Shown here in pieces: positions 48,748 to 61,647 of a DNA stretch of 64,000 nt. The notes beneath the pieces are model-generated. The model did not search any database and was not told where the DNA came from. It was given only the letters and a program-made list of their open reading frames with translations. A program made the position numbers and the translations under genes. Source of the stretch: Verrucomicrobiia bacterium (GTDB taxonomy: Bacteria; Verrucomicrobiota; Verrucomicrobiia; Limisphaerales; UBA1100); NCBI GenBank assembly GCA_014239365.1, contig JAAZZB010000006.1, positions 6,307 to 70,306 of the forward strand. The letters are read 5' to 3'. Every line of letters starts with the position of its first letter. The stretch's first letter is position 1.

Positions 48748-50610
48748 TCAGGATGCACTCATCGTCGGCACGTCCTCGGGCGCGTCAGCGGGCGATCCAC
48801 TCCAAGCCCATTTGGCAGCGGTGCCGATGAGGAGGAAAGCGGCGGCAAGGATGATGATGAGACTTCCCCAGCGGACTTGGAGGCCGGATTTTTCGGGGTT
48901 GAGCACGGGCTGAAATTTGCGGCGGCTGGAGGGGGTGATGAGCAGCCAGCCGCTGACGGTTTTGCGGTTTTCGGTAAGGCAATTGCCGAGGGCAAACAGG
49001 CCGGCTAACGCGCCCAGAACGAGCCAGAAATTTCCCCGCCAAACAAACACATCGCAAATGATGGCGACGACGGCTGGGAAAAATAAAATCTCAACCCAAT
49101 GGCGCAGTAAACGCGGGAGGCTTCTCAGTGCGGCGAGCGCCACGGTGACGCCGAGGCCGGTGAGGGGGGCGATCCACCAGAGGTGCAGCCAATGGATTTG
49201 CCAAAGATGCATCACGCCTGCGGCGGCGAGCAGCGTGGCGGCGGTGAGCAGCGGCACGTTGTAAAAGGGCAGCGCACGGAATTGGCCGGGGCGCGTGCGC
49301 GGGAGCGGTTTGATGTCTTTTTCTTTGGGGATGAGCTTCGCGCCATTCCAAAAAAACGCCACCACCATTCCGATGCTGAGCGACCATTTGAGCCAAAGAT
49401 GCCACCACTCGCGAATCGGTTCAACGAGTGACACAGAAACAACCGCTCCAAAAATTAACCCCATCAGGATGACGTGCCAGATTTTGCGCAGGGCAAAACG
49501 CGCAGCGGCTGAGTTTGTGGTTGAGGAATGCACGGTGCGGTCCAGCGCGGGCATTAGGTTTACCCCCGCCGCGCCGAGCGCCATCACGAGTGCAGCGGCC
49601 AAGCCGATTCCAGCAAATGCCCATAGCATTGAAGCCTTCAAGGTTTCGATATTGACGCTGTTCCCAATCAGCATCACCGCGCCGGTGGCCAACGCCACGA
49701 GCACGAAGCCGCCTTGGGCGGCGAGGAAATGGCGAAAGCCGTGCCAGAAATCGATGTAGCCGATTTTAGCGGCGGCAGCTTTGGCTTCGGGCGTTGGGAA
49801 AAATGAATCCTCCACGCGGCGCATTTGCAACCCGCCAAGGCCAAGCGCGCAGCCGATGGAGAACACGACCATCAAACGCCCGGTGAATCCGTCGGCGGGT
49901 TTGAATGTGTCTGCTGTTTCTGCCGGAGGTGTGACCGGTGGCTTTGGCGTAACAGGCGGAGTTGGAGTGATGATTTTGGGCGTCGTGGGGCCTTTGGCGA
50001 TTTCGTCCGGCTTGGGTTTGGCGGATTGAGATTGAACGATGGCGGCGATCCATAAGCCGAGCACCACCAACGTAGCCATACCGAGGCCGGTTCCGATGAC
50101 GATTTTTTTGTGCTGCTTGATCCAATCCAAAAAAGTAGTAACGGTGGCAACTTCCGGCGTGGATTTGCGTTCGCGTTTGAAAACAAAACCGAAACTGACA
50201 ATGAGCGTGCCCAAACCCAACACAAACAGCCAACCGACCGTGCCGCTTGTGGCTCCGCCGCCGGCTTTTTGGGCGATGAGGACGATGCCCATCACAAAGG
50301 CCAACAGCGCGGAGGCGAGTGCGGTGGTGAAGAACGGTCGGGCTTTGATCCATGCCCACGTGGCGGAGGGGGCGCGTTCTGGCTTCAACTGCGGCTCGGG
50401 TTGAACGGTGACCGGCTCGGGTTCGACTACGGGGATTTCCTCCGCCACGGGCTGGCGGTTTTTCTCGAGCTGTGCCTCGAGGGCGGCGCGGAGTTTGTCG
50501 AGATCCACCGAGCCATCGGTGGGCAGGCGCAGCCGCAACTTCACATCACCCGCGCCCGTCGCTTTGGAAGGGGACGCGGGGACGCGAGGTTGATGACGGG
50601 GCTTAGACAT
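48748..50610 (-). CDS. Hypothetical 620-aa polytopic membrane protein (about 95-aa Pro/Glu-rich cytoplasmic head, then ~14 TM)
   Basis: Long ORF starting 3 nt after the PLD gene's stop codon. Many hydrophobic segments. No recognisable family. Confidence 0.7.
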   Translation of the reverse strand: MSKPRHQPRVPASPSKATGAGDVKLRLRLPTDGSVDLDKLRAALEAQLEKNRQPVAEEIPVVEPEPVTVQPEPQLKPERAPSATWAWIKARPFFTTALASALLAFVMGIVLIAQKAGGGATSGTVGWLFVLGLGTLIVSFGFVFKRERKSTPEVATVTTFLDWIKQHKKIVIGTGLGMATLVVLGLWIAAIVQSQSAKPKPDEIAKGPTTPKIITPTPPVTPKPPVTPPAETADTFKPADGFTGRLMVVFSIGCALGLGGLQMRRVEDSFFPTPEAKAAAAKIGYIDFWHGFRHFLAAQGGFVLVALATGAVMLIGNSVNIETLKASMLWAFAGIGLAAALVMALGAAGVNLMPALDRTVHSSTTNSAAARFALRKIWHVILMGLIFGAVVSVSLVEPIREWWHLWLKWSLSIGMVVAFFWNGAKLIPKEKDIKPLPRTRPGQFRALPFYNVPLLTAATLLAAAGVMHLWQIHWLHLWWIAPLTGLGVTVALAALRSLPRLLRHWVEILFFPAVVAIICDVFVWRGNFWLVLGALAGLFALGNCLTENRKTVSGWLLITPSSRRKFQPVLNPEKSGLQVRWGSLIIILAAAFLLIGTAAKWAWSGSPADAPEDVPTMSAS

Positions 50611-50613
50611 TTG

Positions 50614-51318
50614 CTAACTGAAGTTGCGCCAAAGCTGATCAAACATTCGGGTAAACGACTTGAGTAAATCAGCATCGCCGGTGATGAGAAAATTTTCGTC
50701 GTTGTGCAACGAGGCGGAGCGGGTCCAATTATAACTGCCGGTGAGCAAACGGGTTTTATCAAAGATGGCGAATTTGTGATGCATGTGATGTTCGGAGCGA
50801 TCCATGCGCACGGCGATGCCGGCGCGCTCGAGGCGTTTGATGTCCGAGCCGGCGTCCATCGATTTATCGTCATCGCTGATGACGCGGATTTGCACGCGGC
50901 GGCGGTGCGCTTTTTCGATAGCGTCGGCGATGCGATTATCGGTGATGGTGAACACGCAAATATCCACCGAGGCGCGGGCTTGCGCCAAGCAATCGATGAT
51001 TTTGCCCACGCAATTATCGTCGGGGCTGAAGAAAGCGGCGGCCACTTCGGCTTTGCCGGTATTGGGAAGATTCTCGGCGGGGTGCAGCGTTTTCACCGTG
51101 TTTTCCAACCACTCCAAAACCTGATGGCGCTGGCCGTTATCGGCGCTGGCGAGGGCCTCGCGGGCGGCATCAAAGGCCATGCTGCGGTAAAGGGCGCGGC
51201 GTTGTTCGTTGCCCTTGATGGAATCGGTGAGCGCGCGGATCTCGCTGCGTTCACTGCGTGAGAGCTGGAAATCCTCCAGCGTCGATTGGAAGAGGGCTTT
51301 GACCTCGTGATCTTTCAT
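50614..51318 (-). CDS. Single-HKD phospholipase D superfamily protein (Nuc/Zucchini-like) with a ~90-aa N-terminal helical domain
   Basis: HKD motif HHKFAIFDKTRLLTGSYNWTRSAS, present once. No signal peptide. Confidence 0.8.
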   Translation of the reverse strand: MKDHEVKALFQSTLEDFQLSRSERSEIRALTDSIKGNEQRRALYRSMAFDAAREALASADNGQRHQVLEWLENTVKTLHPAENLPNTGKAEVAAAFFSPDDNCVGKIIDCLAQARASVDICVFTITDNRIADAIEKAHRRRVQIRVISDDDKSMDAGSDIKRLERAGIAVRMDRSEHHMHHKFAIFDKTRLLTGSYNWTRSASLHNDENFLITGDADLLKSFTRMFDQLWRNFS

Positions 51319-51505
51319 AGCAGATATTTTCCCCCATTTTGTTCGATTGGGGCGTTTGGCGCTGGGATGAATACTTTAGCGCGTGAGCCCGATTTCGCCA
51401 ATGAAAAAGCGCCCACGAAAAAGGTTTCCCGATTGGGGTTTATTTCGTAGAATTCCCTCACCCACGCGACGACTCAAACCGTCAACCACAACGAAAGGCA
51501 ATCTT

Positions 51506-52300
51506 ATGGCCAAGTTCATTAAAAACCTGAAATCAAAAGTCGAACATTACAAAACCAAGGCGGAGGAAATTCGCGCGATGGTTGAAGAAGGCGCTGAGAC
51601 GATTCGCGAGATTCGCAGCGATGTGGAAAGCACCGTGGAGGATTTGAAGGCGGACAGCGAAGAAAAGATGATGGAGAGTCTGGAAAAAATCCAGGACTCG
51701 GAGCGTGTTTTCAAAGAGGCGGGTTATTCATTGCACGCGGTACGGCTGGAGGTGGGGTTCAACCCGAAGGTGGTTTCGGTGCTGCGGCGCGAATCGAAAA
51801 TCAACGCGCGCAAGCAGGAACGCCTGCTCCAACAGCACGCGGACAACAAGCTGTTGAGCAGTATGCTGAAATCGCTTTTCAAAGCCGAAGCGTTGGAGGA
51901 CAAAGTGCATCTGCGGCGGTTGACGTTTCACGAAGTTCAAATCGAGGTGGGCGTGGTGCCGGCGGTGCACGTGGTTTGGGAGGACAAAAACAGTGTGACG
52001 CTAACGCCGATTGCGGCTCCGGAAAAGGAGGCCGCGTACAGCAGCCCGTTCGCAAGCCGAAGTTCATTCACGAGCGGCAGTTCGTCGTTCCCGCGCAGTT
52101 CGTTTGCGGAAGATGTGGAGGTTGAAGAAGAAACCATGGAGCCTGAGCCAATGCCTCAGCCCGACCCCGCCGAGGCCGCAGTAGAAGTTGCTGCGGCGGA
52201 GGAAGATTTTACCGCGCCGAGGGTATCCGCTTCCGCGCGGGATCCGGAGGATGACAAGTGGACGAGTTTCCCGGACATTTCATTTCCGGGAAGTAAGTAA
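51506..52300 (+). CDS. Hypothetical protein: helical N-terminus, duplicated (L/I)EVG..P.V motif, acidic disordered tail
   Basis: ORF from the internal ATG at 51506 with GAAAGG 8-13 nt upstream. No family recognised. Confidence 0.5.
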   Translation: MAKFIKNLKSKVEHYKTKAEEIRAMVEEGAETIREIRSDVESTVEDLKADSEEKMMESLEKIQDSERVFKEAGYSLHAVRLEVGFNPKVVSVLRRESKINARKQERLLQQHADNKLLSSMLKSLFKAEALEDKVHLRRLTFHEVQIEVGVVPAVHVVWEDKNSVTLTPIAAPEKEAAYSSPFASRSSFTSGSSSFPRSSFAEDVEVEEETMEPEPMPQPDPAEAAVEVAAAEEDFTAPRVSASARDPEDDKWTSFPDISFPGSK

Positions 52301-52303
52301 GAT

Positions 52304-52353
52304 GGTAGGGACGCGCTATGCGCGTCCGTGGACACGCGCAGCGTGTCCCTACC
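52304..52353. terminator. REP-like double hairpin (GGTAGGG ... CCCTACC), probable bidirectional terminator
   Basis: GGACGCGC-TAT-GCGCGTCC (52309-52327) and GGACACGC-GCA-GCGTGTCC (52330-52348), inside the outer GGTAGG/CCTACC arms. The ATPase stop codon (52349-52351) lies in the outer arm. Confidence 0.6.
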
Positions 52354-55300
52354 CTTCTTCTTTGTCATCTGCGGGCGGTTGCGGTTGCTGCGCTTCTTGC
52401 AGTTGGGCGAGGAGTTGTTGGATGAGGGCGTCGCTGTCCTGCACCATATCCTGGCTGACATCCACAACCACTTCAGTGGGCTGAGCGGCGTCGAGACGTT
52501 CGCGCAGTTCGCGATGGCGTTCCTGATAATTCGCAAAGAGCACGCCAATGTTCGACAGCGCCGCCTGCATTTGGTTGGCCTGCGTTTGGGATTGTGAATC
52601 GCGGATGGTATCGGCGAGCGTGGCGTTGCTTTGCTCAATAAATTCGGCGAGTGCCATTTGGCGGTCGGCAAGTCCGGATTGGCTTTGCTGGGCAGCCGCG
52701 GCGGCGGTGCTGGATTGCTCCAAATATTTTTCAAACGCCCCGCGCAAGGCGGCAAGGTTTTCGTTGGTTGCATCGCTCGGCGCCGTGCCCTCGGGAGTGG
52801 GCGCGGCGGTTTGCTGACTGGCGAGGTGTTGAGAAATCGTGTCGCGAAGGGCGTCGAGGCTTTCGTTCATCCCGCCGAGGTCAAGCTGGGTGGTGCGAGG
52901 TTTGGAGAGCTCTTCCTTGAGCGTGCCCTGAATGGAATCGAGACCGCCGGTGAATAGCGACAATTGACTGACCACGCGGCTGACAGGATCGCCTTGATCG
53001 CCGCCCTGCAAAAATTGATTCCGGCCATAGGTTTTTTTGATGTCCTCCCAGCGCGCTTCCTCTTCTTCGGTCATCACGCCGATGAGCTGCTTGAACTTCA
53101 GGAAGTTGGCCTCCGCGCCGGTGGTGAGTGTTTGACTTTCGCCTTTGTAATGATCAAGCACAAGATTCATCAGCTCGCGCTTATTCATAATCGGCAACAC
53201 CTTTTCGGCGAGGCGATTCATATTGCGATAGGAGCCCTGCATTTTGAAGGCCGGTTCCGTGCGAAACTCATCCGCTTGCCCGGCGCTCTCGATGTACAAC
53301 TGATTTACTTTCAAAACCACATCGCGCAGCACGGCGAGCTTTTTGAGGACGTTGAGTAATTCCTCCGTTTCATTCGCGGAATAATTTCCCTGCAACTCGA
53401 TGCCCTCGCGTTGGTCAGTCTCGGCCATCCGAATGAACGCTTGAATATCTTTTTGTGCCGCCTTAGCGAGCGGCTGTAAAACGGGATTGGAGGTGATGGC
53501 GTTTTCGATGTAACTGCCGTTAAACGCTTCCTCGCGGCCTTTCATGTCGTCGCCGAGATTGTAAGTGTCGGCGCGGTTAGCGAGCATATCGGGGATGCGA
53601 AATTTTTCACCGCTCTCGGTATAAGGGTTGCCGGCCATCACAACGACGACGCGGCGGCCGCGCATATCGTAAGTTTTGGGTTGGCCGCGCCAGACGCCTT
53701 CGATCTTGCGTTGGGCGTCGCAGAGCGAAATGAATTTTTGCAAAAACTCAGGGTTGCAATGCTGGATGTCGTCCACGTAAATCATCACGTTATCGCCCAT
53801 CTCCAACGCGAGATTGAGTTTGTTGACCTCCGCGCGCGCACCGGCATTTGGGGCATCCTCGGGATCCAACGAAGACACTTCGTGGCCCAACGCGGGGCCA
53901 TTGATTTTCATAAAAATCAGGCCCATCCGATTGGCGAGATATTCCATCAACGTCGTTTTGCCGTAGCCCGGTGGGGAGATGAGCAGCAGCAAGCCCATTA
54001 AATCCGTGCGCTTGCCTTCGCCGGTGGCGCCGATTTGCTTGGCGAGGTTATCGCCCACGATGGGCAAATAAACCGTGTCCACCAATTGATTGCGCACAAA
54101 AGACGACAACACGCGCGGCTCGAATTCGTGGAGTCGCAGCAATTCTTTTTCGTCCTCAATGAGTGTTTGTTTTAACTCCTGATATTGCTCAAAGCGCGGC
54201 ACCGATTCGCGCGCGAAACGGCCGAGCTTTTCCTGAAACGCAAGGTAGTCGAAATCGTAGCTGCCTTCCTGCACGGCGTCGTGCGCGCCTTGCAATCCGG
54301 TAACGGCTTGGGCGGTAGCGGCTTTTACGACGGCTTGTTTGTGATGATGGCCGCAGAAAATCAGCGCGGCAACTTCCTCGAGATATTTATTTTCGCCATT
54401 GCGTGAGAGCAGAAAGCCGCGCACCCAGTCGCGGACGAGTTGATAATGGCTGTGCGGATTTGCCTTGAGCGGCTTCTGCGCCTTTGAAAATTCTGATTCA
54501 CTACCTTTCTTGACAAGATGACGCTCGAACTCCGTGAGTAATTTATCCGCTTCCTGACTGACGGCCCAATCATTGCCATTCGTAATCTCGTAAAATAAAT
54601 ACTCACCCGCCGGCACTGCGTCACCTTCGGGAAACAAACCCGTCTCATTTACAAAACCCGTGACCAATTCCTGCAACGCCGCGATGTATTCACGCTGAGT
54701 AGGATCGCCGGGAAACAGCTCGTTGCGTTTGGCGAAGCCCTCAAGCTGAGCGGCCCACAGTTTACGCGTATCTTCAGGACAAAAATGATGCCAATACACC
54801 GCACCACACGCCCGCACACGGGGATGGTAGCGCGCCAGCTGCAATGCGGCATGAGTGTTGAGCAGCGCGGCAAGGATCTTACCTGCATCTTGGTCATGGA
54901 TCCCTTTGGTATAGGCTTCGGCATAGCGATCGCCCATGAACTCCTGTATAATTTTGAGGCGATCGGCTGCCTTCATGGCGGCCACCTCGGCAAGACGTTC
55001 GCCGCCTTCGTGCTCAAGTTTTTGCCAGAGCAAATAAGCGAGGTATTCAGCGCGGTAAACTTCTTTATCCTCACTGATAACCTGCTGATCCCAAACTGCG
55101 CGCGTGGCGAGGAAAGTTTCGTCCTCGATGGGATCGAAATACTGAGTGCCGGTGAGATGCAAATTCTGCTCGTCGCCGCGGCGCACGATCGTGAGGTCGA
55201 GCGGTTGGGTGTTAACGGCGAACTTGTGTTTGCCAAACTGAATGACGTTTTGGCCGTCGACGTAGAGTTCCTTTTTGTCTTTGAGCTGGCGGACGGCTTC

Positions 55301-57853
55301 TTCGTGAATGGTTTTGAGTTGGGACTGGATGCCCTCCGCTTCGCCGGCTTTTTCGAGTGCGGTGAGTTCCTCCACGCGTTCGCGAATGGAATCGATAATC
55401 CGATCGGCGGCCATATAGCCGTTGATGTCGTTGACATCGTCGAAGGTGCCGAGCTTGTGCTCCACGCTTTTGAGCATTCGCTCAGCGGAAGACGTCAGCG
55501 CGGTGGCTTTGCGGTTTCGGATTTCCTCGAGCTGCAGCCGTTTCTGCTCGAAGGCGGCTTCGAGTTCGCCGCGCTTTTCATCAAGCTGCTCGATGTACTC
55601 CGGGAAATCCGCGAAGTCGCCGCCTAAATCCTCCAGTTGATTGATGACGTTATTAAAATATCCGTCGCACTTCTCCGGCGAATCGGACATATCCAAATAA
55701 TTTACCGCCGTTTGGCTGAGCAATAAAATCTGGGCATTAAACTGCGCCGCACCCTCGGCACTCATCAACGTGCGCGATTTATTTTTGAGCGCTTCTTTTA
55801 CCTGATTCACCACCTGATAAATTGCGGTGATGGATTCGATGATTCGGGTTTGCTCGGTGGTGTCATCGATTTGCAAACTGCGCACAATGTCGATGAGCAT
55901 CTCGAGGTCTTCACCGGCTTGGGTGATTTCCGCATTCAACTCTTTGGCCTCGGCCATTTTGGTGACGCCCTCGACTTGGCTGCGCTGGGCATCGGCGCGA
56001 TCGCGATAGGGATCCAGCGCCTCGGGTTGAAGCAGAAATTGAACGCACGATTGCGAAAGCGTTTCCACTTGCTCCTTCACCTCCGCCTCAAGGGCGTCCA
56101 TCGCGGCGGTGTCGATGAAGCGCACCTCGTCTTTGAGCGTGATGATTTCCCCGCGCATTCGGCGCAGTCCGCCGAGGTTAGCCACGAAATCATCAACCGA
56201 CCGGAAGTCCGCGCGGAGGACTTGATTGAACAACGTCTTGGCGCGCTTTTGGATTTCATCGGTCTTTTCTTTGGCGTCAAGGCGGAGGCGTCGCACTTTG
56301 TCAAACTCGGCAATTGCCTTTTCGGCAGAGCTGCCGATCTCTTTTAGAATTTCCACCACGCTGCCGCCATCGCCGGAGGTCAGCCACGCGTATGAATTGG
56401 GAATGCTTTCGCACCGGCGCGCCACGTCGGCGTAAAGGTCTGCGTAAGGCGATTCTTTTTGGATGAGGATGAGCACCTCATTGCACTCGGCCATCGCGCG
56501 CACCACGGATTTATTGCCCACTTGGTACAGGAACGATTCGCGGTTGCCGCTTTCCGGTTCGAAACCGGGTTGATAAAATGGCGTTTGGCGCAGTTGAATC
56601 GTGTGATGTTTGATGGCCTCTTCCTCGGCGCGGAAGCTCACAAGATCGCCATTGGGGAACAGCGAAAACCCGTGGCACGTAATGCGCTCGGTAACTTCCT
56701 GTTCGATGAGGCGATAGGGCAACAGCGCGTACAGCCCGCTCATCCGGTTGAAAAAGACATACAGAAAATCTTCGCCATTGGGCGAGGGCACCGTGCGTTC
56801 GAGCACCATTTCGCCCAGCTCGCCTTCGTAGCGTTTCAGTTCGCCGGTTTGCAGGTAGTAGCCATCGGGGAAAATCAGCCCGTGCTCCTCGGGCAACATC
56901 ACGCACGATTGGCCCAGCGTATCCACGCGATGCACGGCCTGAAGTTTTTCGTTGAAAATAAAATAGCGCGTTTGCTTTTCGCGATAGGGCGTCATCTTCA
57001 GCAAAATCAACGAGCCTTGGATGGCGTATTGGATTTCGGCATCGCCCACTTTTTGATTCGCGTCCACCACCTCCTCGGCGTAGATGCCTTCGCCGGTGGC
57101 GGTGTTGTCCTCCACTTTGATCGTGAGATCGCCGCCGACGCATTCCACAAACACGCGGTCCTCGATGGATACGTGCGGGTTGTCGCCGTGCCGAACCGCA
57201 CTGCTCGCCGGAGTTTTCCACTGAAAATTATACTGGCCGGGAAAGCCTTGGCGAAGATAGTCCGGCGCGCTGCGGTCATCCTCGTAAACCAGCTCGCCAT
57301 CTTTGTAGAGCCACTTGAACACCGTCACATCATCCACCATTTTGCCGGTGCGAAACACCATGTACAGGTGAACGCCAATTATGGCGAACCGGTGGAACGT
57401 GGCGGATTGATCGATTTTGAAAAGACGCGAGAACGATTCTTTGAAATGTTCGTCCTGTAACAACGTGAGGTCGCCCTCGTGGAACGTCTGCGCCTCGGCG
57501 TCATATTCAAACACGCTGAAGACATCACTCAACTGCCCTTGCTTGAGGCCGAGGTTTACGTTGAAGCCAAAAAGAAAACGATTGTGGCCGAGCTGAATCA
57601 TATCGCGCGGCTCGCAATTGAGCTGCGTGGACACGCGATCCATTTTCTTCAGCTCCAGCTTGCGCGTGCCAAAGACTTCCGCGCGTTGCTCGTCGAGCGT
57701 GCCCAATCCCTCGCGCAATACCTTGGCCTGATCGGTCAGGCGTTGCTTGATGAGATCGTACGCGCCGCCTTCCAGCGCGGTTGATGCGCCTTCCGCGGGG
57801 GTGCCGCTGTCGCCACTGTCAGGAGGTTCCGCCATCGGGAATTTGGAATCCAA
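52349..57853 (-). CDS. Giant (1,834 aa) single-module AAA+ ATPase with a beta-rich N-terminal domain and long coiled-coil region
   Basis: Walker A SPPGYGKTT (GYGKT at nt 53954-53968). Walker B VMIYVDDIQ (DD at nt 53768-53773). MAGNPYTESGEKFRIPDMLANRA resembles the MoxR/AAA_5 NP..G..(L/I)P...(D/N)R segment. An alternative start is at 57835. Confidence 0.85.
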   Translation of the reverse strand: MDSKFPMAEPPDSGDSGTPAEGASTALEGGAYDLIKQRLTDQAKVLREGLGTLDEQRAEVFGTRKLELKKMDRVSTQLNCEPRDMIQLGHNRFLFGFNVNLGLKQGQLSDVFSVFEYDAEAQTFHEGDLTLLQDEHFKESFSRLFKIDQSATFHRFAIIGVHLYMVFRTGKMVDDVTVFKWLYKDGELVYEDDRSAPDYLRQGFPGQYNFQWKTPASSAVRHGDNPHVSIEDRVFVECVGGDLTIKVEDNTATGEGIYAEEVVDANQKVGDAEIQYAIQGSLILLKMTPYREKQTRYFIFNEKLQAVHRVDTLGQSCVMLPEEHGLIFPDGYYLQTGELKRYEGELGEMVLERTVPSPNGEDFLYVFFNRMSGLYALLPYRLIEQEVTERITCHGFSLFPNGDLVSFRAEEEAIKHHTIQLRQTPFYQPGFEPESGNRESFLYQVGNKSVVRAMAECNEVLILIQKESPYADLYADVARRCESIPNSYAWLTSGDGGSVVEILKEIGSSAEKAIAEFDKVRRLRLDAKEKTDEIQKRAKTLFNQVLRADFRSVDDFVANLGGLRRMRGEIITLKDEVRFIDTAAMDALEAEVKEQVETLSQSCVQFLLQPEALDPYRDRADAQRSQVEGVTKMAEAKELNAEITQAGEDLEMLIDIVRSLQIDDTTEQTRIIESITAIYQVVNQVKEALKNKSRTLMSAEGAAQFNAQILLLSQTAVNYLDMSDSPEKCDGYFNNVINQLEDLGGDFADFPEYIEQLDEKRGELEAAFEQKRLQLEEIRNRKATALTSSAERMLKSVEHKLGTFDDVNDINGYMAADRIIDSIRERVEELTALEKAGEAEGIQSQLKTIHEEAVRQLKDKKELYVDGQNVIQFGKHKFAVNTQPLDLTIVRRGDEQNLHLTGTQYFDPIEDETFLATRAVWDQQVISEDKEVYRAEYLAYLLWQKLEHEGGERLAEVAAMKAADRLKIIQEFMGDRYAEAYTKGIHDQDAGKILAALLNTHAALQLARYHPRVRACGAVYWHHFCPEDTRKLWAAQLEGFAKRNELFPGDPTQREYIAALQELVTGFVNETGLFPEGDAVPAGEYLFYEITNGNDWAVSQEADKLLTEFERHLVKKGSESEFSKAQKPLKANPHSHYQLVRDWVRGFLLSRNGENKYLEEVAALIFCGHHHKQAVVKAATAQAVTGLQGAHDAVQEGSYDFDYLAFQEKLGRFARESVPRFEQYQELKQTLIEDEKELLRLHEFEPRVLSSFVRNQLVDTVYLPIVGDNLAKQIGATGEGKRTDLMGLLLLISPPGYGKTTLMEYLANRMGLIFMKINGPALGHEVSSLDPEDAPNAGARAEVNKLNLALEMGDNVMIYVDDIQHCNPEFLQKFISLCDAQRKIEGVWRGQPKTYDMRGRRVVVVMAGNPYTESGEKFRIPDMLANRADTYNLGDDMKGREEAFNGSYIENAITSNPVLQPLAKAAQKDIQAFIRMAETDQREGIELQGNYSANETEELLNVLKKLAVLRDVVLKVNQLYIESAGQADEFRTEPAFKMQGSYRNMNRLAEKVLPIMNKRELMNLVLDHYKGESQTLTTGAEANFLKFKQLIGVMTEEEEARWEDIKKTYGRNQFLQGGDQGDPVSRVVSQLSLFTGGLDSIQGTLKEELSKPRTTQLDLGGMNESLDALRDTISQHLASQQTAAPTPEGTAPSDATNENLAALRGAFEKYLEQSSTAAAAAQQSQSGLADRQMALAEFIEQSNATLADTIRDSQSQTQANQMQAALSNIGVLFANYQERHRELRERLDAAQPTEVVVDVSQDMVQDSDALIQQLLAQLQEAQQPQPPADDKEEG

Positions 57854-57886
57854 TCCATCCGGCCGAAGCCGGAATGGGAAATGGAT

Positions 57887-60097
57887 TTATTTCGCCGCCT
57901 TATCGCCCAGCAACACGCCGGAGATCATATCGCCGATGCCGGATTCTTTCACCGCCTTTTGCGCCTGACGGATCACCGATTTCGTGCCGCCGTCATCCGC
58001 TTGGCTCACCAACTTGGTGAGCAGCGCCGAGATGGTAAGGTTTTTCACGTCCTCGCTGGAGACACCCAGATCCTTCACCCAACCGCGAAGTTGGGTTTTG
58101 AAATAATCGGGGTCGCCGTTGAAGAAGGTGTTCTTCACATCGGTGATGGATTGGCTGTTGTTCACCAAACGATCGACCGATTTGCCGTAGCTGACCGAGC
58201 GCACGACCTTCTCGAAGAAGTCGTTCTCGCCGCCCACGATGTCGATGTTCGCGCTCTTGAGGGCTTCGCCCACCACGCGCGCCTGCGCCTCGGCCACATC
58301 TTTTTGGATTTGGATCTCGGCCAAATCCACGTCGCGATCCTTGTTGAGTTGCAGTCGGAATTCTTCGTGATCCTGCGAGGCTTTGTTGAAGATCTCGATG
58401 GCCTTGGCCATTTCGGTTTTGGACACCGCCTGAGCGAGGCCCATCTTTTCCGTACCGGCGGCTTCGGCAGCTTTCACCGCGTCAATCGCTTCACCTTCGC
58501 CCTTGCCTTCCGCCGCTTTGGCAAGGCCGCTCGCCTCGCCTTGCTTGGCGATCACCGTGGCCTCGGCCACGCCGAGCGCTTCCTCGGCTTGAGCGTCCGC
58601 CTTCTTCGCATCCGCCTTGGCGGTGATCACGCGGGCCTCGGCCAAACCATCGGCGCTTCGCATCGCTGCGGTGCCTTCGGCTTCCTGTTGCATGGCGTGG
58701 TTGCGTTTCTCGCTGGCCTTGGCTTCCGCCTCGGCGATGGTGATGACCTCGTCGGCTTTCTTTTCCGCCGCTTGTTTGGATGCCTCGGCGCCGGTGACTT
58801 CGAGGTACAAATCTTTGTTGGCAATTTCCTTTTGCGCTTGGTGCAGTGCCTCGGCTTGTTTCACTTCTTCCACCAATGACGCTTCGGCTTTGGCGGTGGC
58901 TTCCACCATCAGCACGCGCTTGGCGCGGTCGGCCGACATATCGGCTTCCACATCCAACCGGCCTTGGTGTTGGGTGGTGACTTCTTTTTCCTTGGACTCC
59001 AAACCGGCCTGGCTCTCGGCCACTTCAAAGGCGGCCGCGATGATTTTGGCTTCCTTCTCCTGTTGCATCAGGCCGATGCGCCGCAGGCGATCCACTTCGG
59101 CTTGTTCGCCGGATTCAATTTTCTCCTGCTCCAAACGCAGCAAATCCTGATCCTTCGCGTACGTGGCACTCATCACCACGCGATCCTGCTCCACCTTGCG
59201 TTCCTCAATGTGTTGGCTGGCCTCGATCTCGGCCCTCTCGGAGACCTCGCGATTTTTCTGCACTTCCACCTGCGCCGCCGCGCCTTCGCGGGCCTTGGCC
59301 TCTTCCACGGCGCGGGTTTGTTTGGCTAAATCTTCTTCGTTTTGTTTGTCCAACTCGCGCTTCTCCATTTCGGCGCGGATGTTGTCGTTTTTAATTTCAA
59401 CATCCTTTTCCTGCGTACGCTTGTTGGTCTCCTCTTCCTTTTGGGCCGTGATGCGGTTGATTTTTTCAATGCCCTGCGCGTCGAGCACATTGGCGGGGTC
59501 GTGATCTTCGCGGGAAGTTTGTTCCAGATAATCAATCGCCACGTCCTCCAGTTTGTAGCCATTGAGATCCTCGCCAATTTCATTCACGATCATTTCGCGA
59601 AACTGGGAACGCTGAACATAAAGCTGACTGAAATCCATTTGCTTACCGGCCGCTTTCAAGGCATCGGAGAATTTTGCCTCAAACAAATTACGCAGCAGTT
59701 CGATTTCCGAGGCGCGCTCGCAACCCACCGCTTCGGCCACTTCCTTAATATTTTCCACCTCCGGCGCCACGCGCACATAAAACGCCACCTCGATGTCCGC
59801 CCGAATGTTGTCCTGACAAATCAGGCCGTCCTTGCCTTTCCGCGCCACCTCCAGTTTTTTCACCTGAATATCCATGATATCCCAGCGATTCAAAAAGGGA
59901 AACCGGAACATCCAATCCTTGGTGACCTTGAGCCCACCAACACCCGTCCGCACACCGGCCTCGCCGGCCCGGACTTTTTTCAGGCAAAACATTGAAAGAA
60001 AGGCAAGGATAAGCAGGGCTAAGCCAATGACAATGGCCGCCACCACACCGGCGGCAAGACCGCCAAGACTGATAAAACTAAGAACAGGTTGGATCAT
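57887..60097 (-). CDS. Long flotillin / SPFH (band-7) family membrane protein
   Basis: ATG at 60097 preceded by GGAGA. TM segment ISLGGLAAGVVAAIVIGLALLILAFL. SPFH core (GEAGVRTGVGGLKV...RFPFLNRWDIMDIQV). About 400-aa E/A/K-rich coiled coil and a globular C-terminal tail. Confidence 0.85.
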   Translation of the reverse strand: MIQPVLSFISLGGLAAGVVAAIVIGLALLILAFLSMFCLKKVRAGEAGVRTGVGGLKVTKDWMFRFPFLNRWDIMDIQVKKLEVARKGKDGLICQDNIRADIEVAFYVRVAPEVENIKEVAEAVGCERASEIELLRNLFEAKFSDALKAAGKQMDFSQLYVQRSQFREMIVNEIGEDLNGYKLEDVAIDYLEQTSREDHDPANVLDAQGIEKINRITAQKEEETNKRTQEKDVEIKNDNIRAEMEKRELDKQNEEDLAKQTRAVEEAKAREGAAAQVEVQKNREVSERAEIEASQHIEERKVEQDRVVMSATYAKDQDLLRLEQEKIESGEQAEVDRLRRIGLMQQEKEAKIIAAAFEVAESQAGLESKEKEVTTQHQGRLDVEADMSADRAKRVLMVEATAKAEASLVEEVKQAEALHQAQKEIANKDLYLEVTGAEASKQAAEKKADEVITIAEAEAKASEKRNHAMQQEAEGTAAMRSADGLAEARVITAKADAKKADAQAEEALGVAEATVIAKQGEASGLAKAAEGKGEGEAIDAVKAAEAAGTEKMGLAQAVSKTEMAKAIEIFNKASQDHEEFRLQLNKDRDVDLAEIQIQKDVAEAQARVVGEALKSANIDIVGGENDFFEKVVRSVSYGKSVDRLVNNSQSITDVKNTFFNGDPDYFKTQLRGWVKDLGVSSEDVKNLTISALLTKLVSQADDGGTKSVIRQAQKAVKESGIGDMISGVLLGDKAAK

Positions 60098-60327
60098 AAT
60101 TTTCTCCGAAACAGTTGAGTTGTTAATTGCACAAACATATTGCGACACAGGACACCGCGCACGTTGGAGTACCGCCCGAGGGAAGCAATGCGTGGTGTCG
60201 GGGAGAGAGTACACAAAACTCCCAAAGGCGCGCCACTACAATCTTGAAGAAAGTTTATAATCGCTCAAACCCAAAAAAGCCGAAAAAACCGGTGGCACAT
60301 TGCCCGAGGGCGAGTTAAATTCTCCCA

Positions 60328-61647
60328 ATGAAGACCACACTGCTTTCTCTCACCCTTATTTTTGCCTTCACCTCCACCCTCGCAATTGCCGCCGATCCGC
60401 TGAGCAATTCGCCTTCGCTCCTCAACCGCCTCAAAGACGAAAACGCCCGCGGGCAGGATCAATGGATTTACAACGACCTCAAAAAAGCCATGGCCGAAGC
60501 CAAGCGCACCGGCAAGCCCATCTTCGTCACCTTTCGCTGCGTGCCGTGCCACGCCTGCAAAGCCTTTGATGCCGAGGTGGCCAAAGACAACCAAGCCATC
60601 CGCGCGCTCGCCGAAAAACAATTCATCTCCCTCCGCCAAGTGGAAATGAAAGGCGTGGACCTCAGCCTCTTCCAATTCGATTACGATCTCAACTGGGCCG
60701 CCATGTTCATCAACGCCGATGGCGTCGTGTACGGCCGCTACGGAACCCAATCCGCCGATGGCCCCGATGCCTTCAACTCCATCGGCAGCCTCGAGAAAGC
60801 CATGCGCCGCGTGCTTGCGCTGCACGCCGGTTATCCGAAAAACAAAACCACCCTCGCCGCCAAAAGTGGCGCACCCAAGCCGTACCGCACCGCGATGGAA
60901 ATGCCCGGCCTCGAAAACAAAAACAATTACCGCAAAACCACCGAACGCAATAACTGCATTCATTGCCACAACATCCACGACGCCGAAAACCACAAGCTCC
61001 ATCTCGAAAAAAAGATGACCCACGAAACACTTTGGCGCTATCCATTCCCCGATAACCTCGGCCTCAGCATCGATCCCAAAGACGGCCAGCGCATCGCAAA
61101 AGTTTCCCCCAACAGCGCCGCCGCCCGCGCCGGATTGCGCCCCGGCCAAACGCTCACCCACGTCAACAGCCAACCCATCATCTCCATCGCCGACATCCAA
61201 TGGGTGCTGCACAATCTGTCCAACGACGCCGAACTCATCCGCATCAACATCGCCGGCAGCTCCCGCCAACATCTCATCCGCACCGCACCCGGCTGGAAGA
61301 AAACCGATATTTCCTGGCGCGGCTCATTGTGGAATCTGCACCCGCGCCTGCGCGTGTGGACGCCCGAGGTGAAGGATGACGAACTCAAGCGCCTCCGCCT
61401 CCCCGCCGGGCACCAAGCCCTTAAAGTCAAATGGATCAACCAAAATAGCCCCGAAGGCAAAGCCGCCTCCCGCGCCGGACTTCGCCTCAACGATTACATC
61501 ATCGCCATCAACGGCAAACCACTCGCCAAAATGGGCCATCGCGAATTCAACACCCACGTCAAACTCAACTATAAATCCGGCCAAAAACTCCCACTCACTT
61601 TGATCCGCAATGGCAAACGCATCCAGTTCGAGTGGCCGCTGCAATAA
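60328..61647 (+). CDS. Secreted thioredoxin-fold protein with two PDZ domains
   Basis: Signal peptide. GKPIFVTFRCVPCHACK thioredoxin-like CxxC region. Two PDZ-like segments (AKVSPNSAAARAGLRPGQTLTHVN and QNSPEGKAASRAGLRLNDYIIAING). A second CxxCH motif (CIHCH). Confidence 0.75.
   Translation: MKTTLLSLTLIFAFTSTLAIAADPLSNSPSLLNRLKDENARGQDQWIYNDLKKAMAEAKRTGKPIFVTFRCVPCHACKAFDAEVAKDNQAIRALAEKQFISLRQVEMKGVDLSLFQFDYDLNWAAMFINADGVVYGRYGTQSADGPDAFNSIGSLEKAMRRVLALHAGYPKNKTTLAAKSGAPKPYRTAMEMPGLENKNNYRKTTERNNCIHCHNIHDAENHKLHLEKKMTHETLWRYPFPDNLGLSIDPKDGQRIAKVSPNSAAARAGLRPGQTLTHVNSQPIISIADIQWVLHNLSNDAELIRINIAGSSRQHLIRTAPGWKKTDISWRGSLWNLHPRLRVWTPEVKDDELKRLRLPAGHQALKVKWINQNSPEGKAASRAGLRLNDYIIAINGKPLAKMGHREFNTHVKLNYKSGQKLPLTLIRNGKRIQFEWPLQ

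Follow-up and report, generated by a model that had tools for sequence, protein, structure and literature searches.

What does a giant soluble AAA+ protein do when the one ATPase module in its chain carries aspartate in place of the catalytic glutamate, and what might such a protein be doing beside a flotillin? These questions are raised by a locus in a 64,000-nt stretch of DNA from a Verrucomicrobiia bacterium (contig JAAZZB010000006.1, positions 6,307 to 70,306; hereafter the window), which encodes an ATPase of 1,834 aa on its minus strand. The original prediction, made from sequence, described a single AAA+ core with an Asp-Asp Walker B motif, set between β-rich and coiled-coil segments, and read the loss of the catalytic Glu as a sign of slow or switch-like hydrolysis in a long-reach mechanochemical or scaffold protein. 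Here, we find partial support for that interpretation. The window ATPase is an unremarkable representative of a giant-ATPase family that is widespread and already catalogued. The increment of this work, as judged from alignments, is a near-universal Asp-Asp pair that, in an AAA_5-like module with its other catalytic residues intact, occupies the position of the catalytic Glu. The decisive context, which lay beyond the original prediction, comes from the flotillin operon in which the gene resides and from a prior description of the family.

A single AAA+ module with Asp-Asp in Walker B

We modelled the ATPase with AlphaFold2 in two pieces (predicted local distance difference test scores of 85.6 for residues 7-900 and 87.5 for residues 840-1660), the input being alignments of some 70 homologues whose sequences were obtained by translating genome loci. 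Its parts run in the order N-terminal helix, roughly seven-bladed β-propeller, helical arm of about 420 aa, middle domain, AAA+ module and tail (Table 1). Pfam recognizes DUF3686, DUF7902 and, weakly, AAA, AAA_22 and AAA_5 at residues 1287-1413. A search for transmembrane segments found none, indicating a soluble protein, and translation likely starts at ATG 57835 (residue 7) rather than at TTG 57853. The single P-loop and the single AAA+ core near the C-terminus, both foreseen in the original prediction, are borne out by the motif scan and by Pfam and the model, respectively. No second nucleoside triphosphatase (NTPase) module, cryptic or otherwise, was found by regex motif scan or by permissive Pfam scans of the remaining segments, and the modelled secondary structure contains no second α/β P-loop fold.

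Translation of the window confirmed the coordinates of both Walker motifs. An hhalign alignment of the module to AAA_5 sets DDIQH against "DEi.ra" of the consensus, MAGNP against "TsN" and PDMLANR against "l.ea..dR". Because of this alignment, D1362 is assigned to the catalytic-Glu column of the AAA_5 'DE', N1409 to sensor 1, and R1427, as a candidate, to the Arg finger. Canonical AAA+ proteins have hhhhDE, which includes the catalytic Glu; the ATPase has hhhhDD instead, and in no alignment is a Glu supplied from a shifted Walker B position. AlphaFold2 also models a helical lid, and the likeness of QGSYR to the GxSxR of MoxR proteins makes R1543 a candidate for the sensor-2 Arg.

These features are shared by nearly the whole family. 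A diverse set of 123 sequences, each standing for a 50%-identity cluster, retains D1361 in 122 cases and D1362 in 121, with no instance of Glu. In the larger set, DD[IV]QH is present in 393/395 family sequences and DE in 0/395; of the remaining two, one is a frameshifted fragment and the other an NGIEH variant. The latter, P0265 (1,312 aa, from the representative library), has NGIEH in place of DDIQH and may be an inactivated paralogue. Such a frequency of the DD motif is, on these counts, far above chance. The rest of the site is similarly well kept among 388 family sequences: PPGYGKTT of Walker A in 384, sensor-1 N1409 in 382, the candidate Arg finger R1427 in 379 and R1543 of QGSYR in 379. 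Measured against the window protein, the AAA core shows 72-82% identity across phyla, and the remaining conserved parts 25-60%. Near-invariance extends from DDIQH to both sensors and the Arg finger, and no other part of the protein is as well conserved as the core; the nucleotide site is therefore constrained rather than decayed. Thus the original prediction was right that the catalytic Glu is missing, and wrong in so far as "loss" implied decay.

The ATPase might instead be a nucleotide-binding scaffold, or pseudo-ATPase, which binds ATP for assembly and never hydrolyses it. Such a role would fit the absence of the canonical catalytic Glu across the whole family, as well as the >1,200 residues that lie outside the AAA+ core in the propeller, helical arm and middle domain. 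However, the residues with no role except in hydrolysis or in sensing of the γ-phosphate (sensor-1 Asn, trans Arg finger and sensor-2 Arg) are retained in ~98% of members, and the NGIEH of P0265 shows how genuine decay would appear, making a pseudo-ATPase very unlikely in our view. The pattern of conservation argues instead for a working ATPase, one that probably forms rings.

Relationship to AAA_5/MoxR proteins and to DnaA

To which branch of the AAA+ superfamily does this module belong? Both the model and the alignments place it as AAA_5/MoxR-like and not classical-clade, the latter in agreement with the original prediction. Members of the classical AAA clade are without a pre-sensor-1 insert. 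In the model of the ATPase, a pre-sensor-1 β-hairpin spans residues 1383-1396 (strands 1383-1388 and 1391-1396), between α3 and β4, and carries conserved aromatic residues (W/Y/F1388 and Y/F1395). The argument against the classical clade is based on this hairpin and on the fact that alignments to classical members cover the P-loop only. Sequence searches of the PDB matched p97/VCP, RuvB and similar proteins over β1-α1-β2 only. The classical-clade assignment suggested by the p97/VCP matches was rejected for this reason and because the hairpin is present in the model.

Profile comparisons were made with reference alignments assembled from AAA+ genes of related genomes. Of the sets compared with hhalign, only the AAA_5-type relatives align from α0 to the Arg finger (142 columns, probability 96.7, E 3e-10). 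Similarity to the RuvB set (probability 95.6, 49 columns) and to the FtsH set (probability 94.7, 32 columns) is confined to the P-loop region, and the alignment with the DnaA set (probability 78.8, 80 columns) stops after Walker B. The AAA_3 (MoxR proper) set gives a probability of 24.9 over 31 columns, again in the P-loop region only, although this weak score may partly stem from crude stop-to-stop open reading frame (ORF) alignments. Pfam AAA_5 matches are found in 73/73 family members. Foldseek searches with the AAA+ model return MCM, RuvB, NorQ and CbbQ, with NorQ and CbbQ giving the best target-normalised TM-scores (~0.5).

Like MoxR/AAA_5 proteins (NorQ and CbbQ; dynein-related PF07728), then, the ATPase can be aligned throughout the core and has the pre-sensor-1 hairpin and the 'NP...G..hP..h..R' segment. 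It differs from them in having DDIQH where they have DE-x-N-R, in being embedded in a chain of 1,834 aa, and in lacking a clear helix-2 β-hairpin insert. At the place of that insert, between β2 and α2, there is a conserved 18-residue loop (1319-1336) in which DSSP assigns no hairpin. No gene for a VWA partner stood out among the conserved neighbours, though no search was aimed at VWA.

The Walker B motif itself has a counterpart in DnaA, which carries hhhhDD-I/V-Q; LLIDDiQFL of the relatives' DnaA aligns on IYVDDIQHC of the ATPase. This is one shared motif rather than membership. Core-wide similarity to DnaA is absent, and the ATPase has no initiator-specific motif and no DNA-binding domain detectable by Pfam. 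DnaA is the textbook case of slow ATP hydrolysis regulated by a partner, Hda. By analogy, the DDIQ shared with DnaA makes the switch-like, slow hydrolysis of the original prediction plausible for the giant ATPase.

Alternatively, the ATPase could be an AAA+ machine that remodels or unfolds its substrates processively and with full activity, DDIQH being a compensated version of the AAA_5 'DEINR' and hydrolysis being fast. DDIQH does align on 'DEi.ra' of the AAA_5 relatives, and in going from DE-I-N-R to DD-I-Q-H, Glu to Asp shortens one side chain by a methylene and Asn to Gln lengthens a neighbouring one by the same amount, changes that could be compensatory. The near-invariance of both sensors and of the Arg finger, the extreme conservation of the core, and the conserved aromatics of the pre-sensor-1 hairpin would likewise suit such a machine. 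On the other hand, no aromatic pore-loop-1 motif follows β2, where the sequence reads GPALGHxVTSLDP, and well-studied Asp-Asp Walker B enzymes such as DnaA are, by textbook accounts, slow and regulated. We consider a processive remodeller improbable.

A conserved gene pairing with flotillin

The family is large, with at least 8,000 homologues and 393 representative 50%-identity clusters at E<1e-30. To survey genomic context, we fetched 80 loci from species-representative genomes, spanning Verrucomicrobiota, Planctomycetota, Bacteroidota, Desulfobacterota, Kiritimatiellota and Clostridia; a further search from a Vibrio family member added Gammaproteobacteria (Vibrio, Proteus, Cellvibrio and others). 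Within the phylum of the source organism, distribution is patchy, the family being found in 1/60 other high-quality genomes sampled.

In 68/80 loci, a flotillin homologue lies directly upstream of the ATPase gene on the same strand, and 9 of the 12 loci that lack one simply have no upstream DNA. The flotillin-like protein of the window has an N-terminal transmembrane region, an SPFH domain and a long E/A/K-rich coiled coil. A second frequent, non-universal feature of these loci is a YqiJ/NfeD-like (YuaF) membrane protein of 210-270 aa, encoded before the flotillin gene in 52/80 loci. In Bacteroidota, the operons are more elaborate: PspA is present in 17/80 loci (in 16 upstream on the same strand) and CesT_Tir_1, further upstream, in 15/80. 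The window and its closest relatives (L002-L007) have no YqiJ-like gene, and no PspA/IM30 gene was detected in the source genome, which is 93.6% complete. Because the pair persists without a YqiJ-like gene in the window and without detectable PspA in the genome, flotillin and the ATPase appear to form the core of the module.

Beside the Bacteroidota operons (CesT_Tir_1-PspA-YqiJ-flotillin-ATPase), we also noted a divergent gene for a LexA/CI-like regulator (HTH_19 + Peptidase_S24), at L076:4562-5347 on the minus strand and in 14 further Bacteroidota loci. This arrangement hints at cleavage-controlled induction.

Operons of this type have been described before. Ravi et al. 2024 mSystems (PMC11237479) report a β-propeller + coiled-coil + AAA+ ATPase in CesT/Tir-PspA-YqiJ/YuaF-Band-7/flotillin operons, give Dokdonia donghaensis ANH61663.1 as an example neighbourhood, and find shortened flotillin/YqiJ(/ATPase) operons to be widespread, with PLD added in some Proteobacteria. 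Compared with these operons, the window locus has the same domain order, flotillin immediately upstream and, as in some versions, a PLD/HKD gene nearby; it differs in lacking YqiJ-like, PspA and CesT/Tir genes and in the lineage-specific 184-aa tail of its ATPase. The passages of that paper that were consulted contain no statement on an Asp-Asp Walker B motif, and the word 'Walker' appears nowhere in the supplementary file consulted.

An operon closer to the laboratory is bacABCDEF of Pseudomonas aeruginosa, the 'biofilm-associated cluster' (Mace 2008, PMC2587700; Wallart 2024, PMC10948618). Here, the product of bacC is a short NfeD protein and that of bacD is the flotillin PaFlo3 (PMC13086221). 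The next gene, bacE (PA14_16190, which we take to correspond to PA3728), shows co-transcription with the rest of the operon, and BacE protein rises 8.9-fold in a bacA mutant, alongside BacB-D (PMC10948618); PA3728 is listed as an ATPase (PMC8190622). On the strength of this operon literature, BacE (PA3728) probably belongs to the ATPase family. In its operon it likewise follows the flotillin (BacD/PaFlo3), which BacC precedes; its annotation is that of an ATPase, and it is co-regulated with the PspA-type BacB. The six-gene layout also matches the operon of Ravi et al.; unlike bacABCDEF, the window is without counterparts of bacA, bacB, bacC and bacF, save possibly the PLD gene. We found no report of a mutant or of biochemistry for BacE.

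Could these genes, instead of acting in membrane housekeeping, serve in anti-phage defence or some other conflict alongside the PLD/HKD enzyme encoded nearby? Their distribution is patchy (the 1/60 above), yet cores from different phyla share 61-75% identity, a pattern suggestive of horizontal transfer. The neighbouring PLD protein is similar to NucT/DrmC, and PLD genes recur near the locus. In addition, infection of P. aeruginosa by phage induces PA3728-PA3732 (PMC12041424). Against this, PADLOC returns no match for the ATPase or the flotillin, PLD is nearby in just 4/80 loci, and the constant partners (flotillin, YqiJ and PspA) are envelope-stress proteins. Induction by phage is moreover what gave the Psp systems their name. 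We therefore give a defence role little credence.

In databases, family members carry the name "DNA repair ATPase", a label which we find unsupported. It is a Pfam and NCBI label only, to which one could add weak P-loop-level matches to RuvB and the divergent LexA-like HTH+S24 regulator of Bacteroidota operons. Pfam scans detect neither a DNA-binding nor a nuclease domain, RuvB can be aligned over 49 P-loop columns only, and the genomic context consists of membrane proteins throughout. Nothing came of literature searches for DUF3686 or for flotillin together with 'DNA repair ATPase', and we found no paper in support of a repair role, which strikes us as scarcely credible.

A possible role at flotillin assemblies

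With slightly more confidence than doubt, we favour the view that the ATPase is the cytoplasmic partner of the flotillin-like scaffold in YqiJ/flotillin envelope-stress operons (with or without CesT-PspA, and with or without PLD), and that its hydrolysis is slow or gated. The AAA+ modules would assemble into a ring, as suggested by conservation of a candidate trans-acting Arg finger, and the propeller and arm would dock the ATPase on the cytoplasmic face of flotillin assemblies. ATP binding, followed by comparatively slow or partner-gated hydrolysis, might then drive assembly, remodelling or release of the scaffold or its clients. Our reason for proposing a slow or gated step is that the general base Glu is replaced by Asp, as in DnaA. 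Flotillin would be the core partner, since neither PspA nor a YqiJ-type gene could be detected in the source genome; where PspA is present, the ATPase may also act on PspA polymers. A related arrangement is seen in HflK/C-FtsH and other SPFH-AAA+ pairings, where a scaffold of the SPFH family and an AAA+ machine are functionally coupled at the inner membrane. FtsH, however, is a classical-clade, membrane-anchored protease, whereas the window ATPase is soluble, has no protease domain, and resembles FtsH over 32 P-loop columns only.

Several points weigh against this proposal. The slowing of hydrolysis by Asp for Glu is an argument by analogy, and fast hydrolysis could be restored by the invariant Q/H pair that follows DD or by an invariant Glu elsewhere (E1304, E1342, E1369 or E1450). 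A limited literature search found no enzymology, and no mention of the DD motif, for any family member. The length of the ATPase tail does not co-vary with that of the flotillin (rho 0.05). A sequence search for BacE through a Vibrio family member listed 120 matches, many of them from Gammaproteobacteria, with no Pseudomonas among them. Finally, phenotypes may be subtle: deletion of PaFlo3 lowers biofilm by only ~20% (PMC13086221).

A bolder version of the proposal is that DDIQH marks a distinct AAA+ sub-clade, gated by flotillin as DnaA is by Hda, whose members are flotillin-cage assembly or disassembly factors and Vps4-like recyclers of PspA, with a second activity in the middle domain. We regard this combination as unlikely. 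If it were true, the giant ATPase would be a nucleotide-timed assembly/disassembly factor for bacterial flotillin cages and, where PspA is present, a Vps4-like recycler of ESCRT-III-type polymers, and the YxKGxHDxDA site of the middle domain would carry the second activity.

The window locus itself is ordinary, being one more family member in a reduced two-gene form. What gives the family wider interest is that no other ATPase is consistently tied to a flotillin gene in so many phyla, and yet it goes under the mistaken name "DNA repair ATPase". Bacterial flotillins and PspA have been much studied, but the remodelling of their assemblies is far less understood, and the near-universal Asp-Asp Walker B motif suggests that turnover is regulated.

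Other regions of the ATPase

Table 1. Features of the giant ATPase and its locus (all on the minus strand; positions are those of the window)
Feature	Residues	Window position	Strand	Basis or remark
Giant ATPase gene		52349..57853	-	1,834 aa counted from TTG 57853
DUF3686 (PF12458)	46-488	56390..57718	-	Pfam, E 6.8e-153, full profile coverage
Helical arm	441-863	55265..56533	-	Pfam and AlphaFold2
Middle domain	864-1250	54104..55264	-	Small β unit and helical bundle, conserved
AAA+ α/β core	1256-1436	53546..54088	-	Pfam AAA/AAA_5, AlphaFold2, Foldseek, hhalign
Walker A, SPPGYGKTT	1293-1301	53951..53977	-	Single GK[ST] P-loop in regex scan
Walker B, MIYVDDIQH	1357-1365	53759..53785	-	Single hhhhD[DE] in regex scan
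Sensor-1 Asn (MAGNP)	1409	53627..53629	-	Directly after modelled strand 1402-1408 (β4)
Candidate Arg finger (PDMLANRAD)	1427	53573..53575	-	Aligned with 'dR' of AAA_5 relatives
Candidate sensor-2 Arg (QGSYR)	1543	53225..53227	-	Motif resemblance to MoxR GxSxR
Lid and C-terminal helical domain	1437-1650	52904..53545	-	Model and conservation
Lineage-specific tail	1651-1834	52352..52903	-	Q/A/L/D/E/S-rich
Flotillin-like SPFH/Band-7 gene		57887..60214	-	Band_7, E 8e-13; likely start ATG 60097
Intercistronic spacer, 51 nt		57836..57886	-	Flotillin stop codon to ATPase ATG, read from sequence
Single-HKD PLD-family gene		50614..51318	-	Two genes downstream of ATPase; NucT/DrmC-like

The original prediction had called the N-terminus β-rich, the next region heptad-rich and the last ~330 aa coiled-coil or low-complexity. 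The first two descriptions agree with our model. DUF3686 corresponds to a β-propeller of roughly seven blades, with strands at residues ~67-423 following the N-terminal helix, and Foldseek matches this region to propellers of IFT-A, Vps18, WD40 proteins and prolyl oligopeptidases. The arm (residues 441-863) is modelled as about ten long helices, the majority of 20-58 residues, and contains DUF7902 (PF25472; residues 611-694, E 4e-22). The third description fits the tail of 184 aa (residues 1651-1834), which is low-complexity, is 4-6% identical between homologues, and is shorter than 15 aa in 34/73 of them. It does not fit residues ~1440-1650, which form a conserved helical lid and C-terminal domain; identity across phyla is 56-66% for residues 1501-1600 and 38% for residues 1601-1650.

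The middle domain has no match in the PDB at E<=10, and searches against Pfam profiles give scattered noise only. It contains a number of invariant polar residues (D859, N881, H899, E928, R934, Y981, K983, D987, D989, R1014 and H1191), several of them within the motif YxKGxHDxDA (residues 981-990, window 54884-54913). These residues may mark a functional site that is so far undescribed.

Neighbouring genes and minor observations

The spacer between the flotillin and ATPase genes contains a nested hairpin, ATCCAT...CCGGCTTCGGCCGG...ATGGAT, which may serve processing, attenuation or translational coupling. Elsewhere in the source genome there are six further Band_7 matches (contigs C43, C40 and C3), including a stomatin-type gene beside an NfeD gene on C43. 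On the far side of the flotillin gene, an ORF of 335 aa (60265-61272, minus strand) was considered as a YqiJ-like operon gene and rejected as the shadow of a Trx7/PDZ (seleno)protein gene at 60328-61647 on the plus strand (NCBIfam NF041199, E 2e-129).

Downstream of the ATPase, the PLD gene is possibly an accessory of the flotillin-ATPase module; the loci with PLD homologues near the giant gene are L002, L003, L030 and L080. In the window, the PLD gene is closely followed by one for a 620-aa protein with ~11 transmembrane segments, the pair spanning 48748-51318 on the minus strand. Between the PLD and ATPase genes, and convergent to the latter, is an ORF at 51383-52300 on the plus strand. Its 305-aa product is acidic and helical, and is conserved only in the closest relatives L002 and L003. 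In L006, a weak homologue of this ORF is co-directional with the giant gene and directly follows it.

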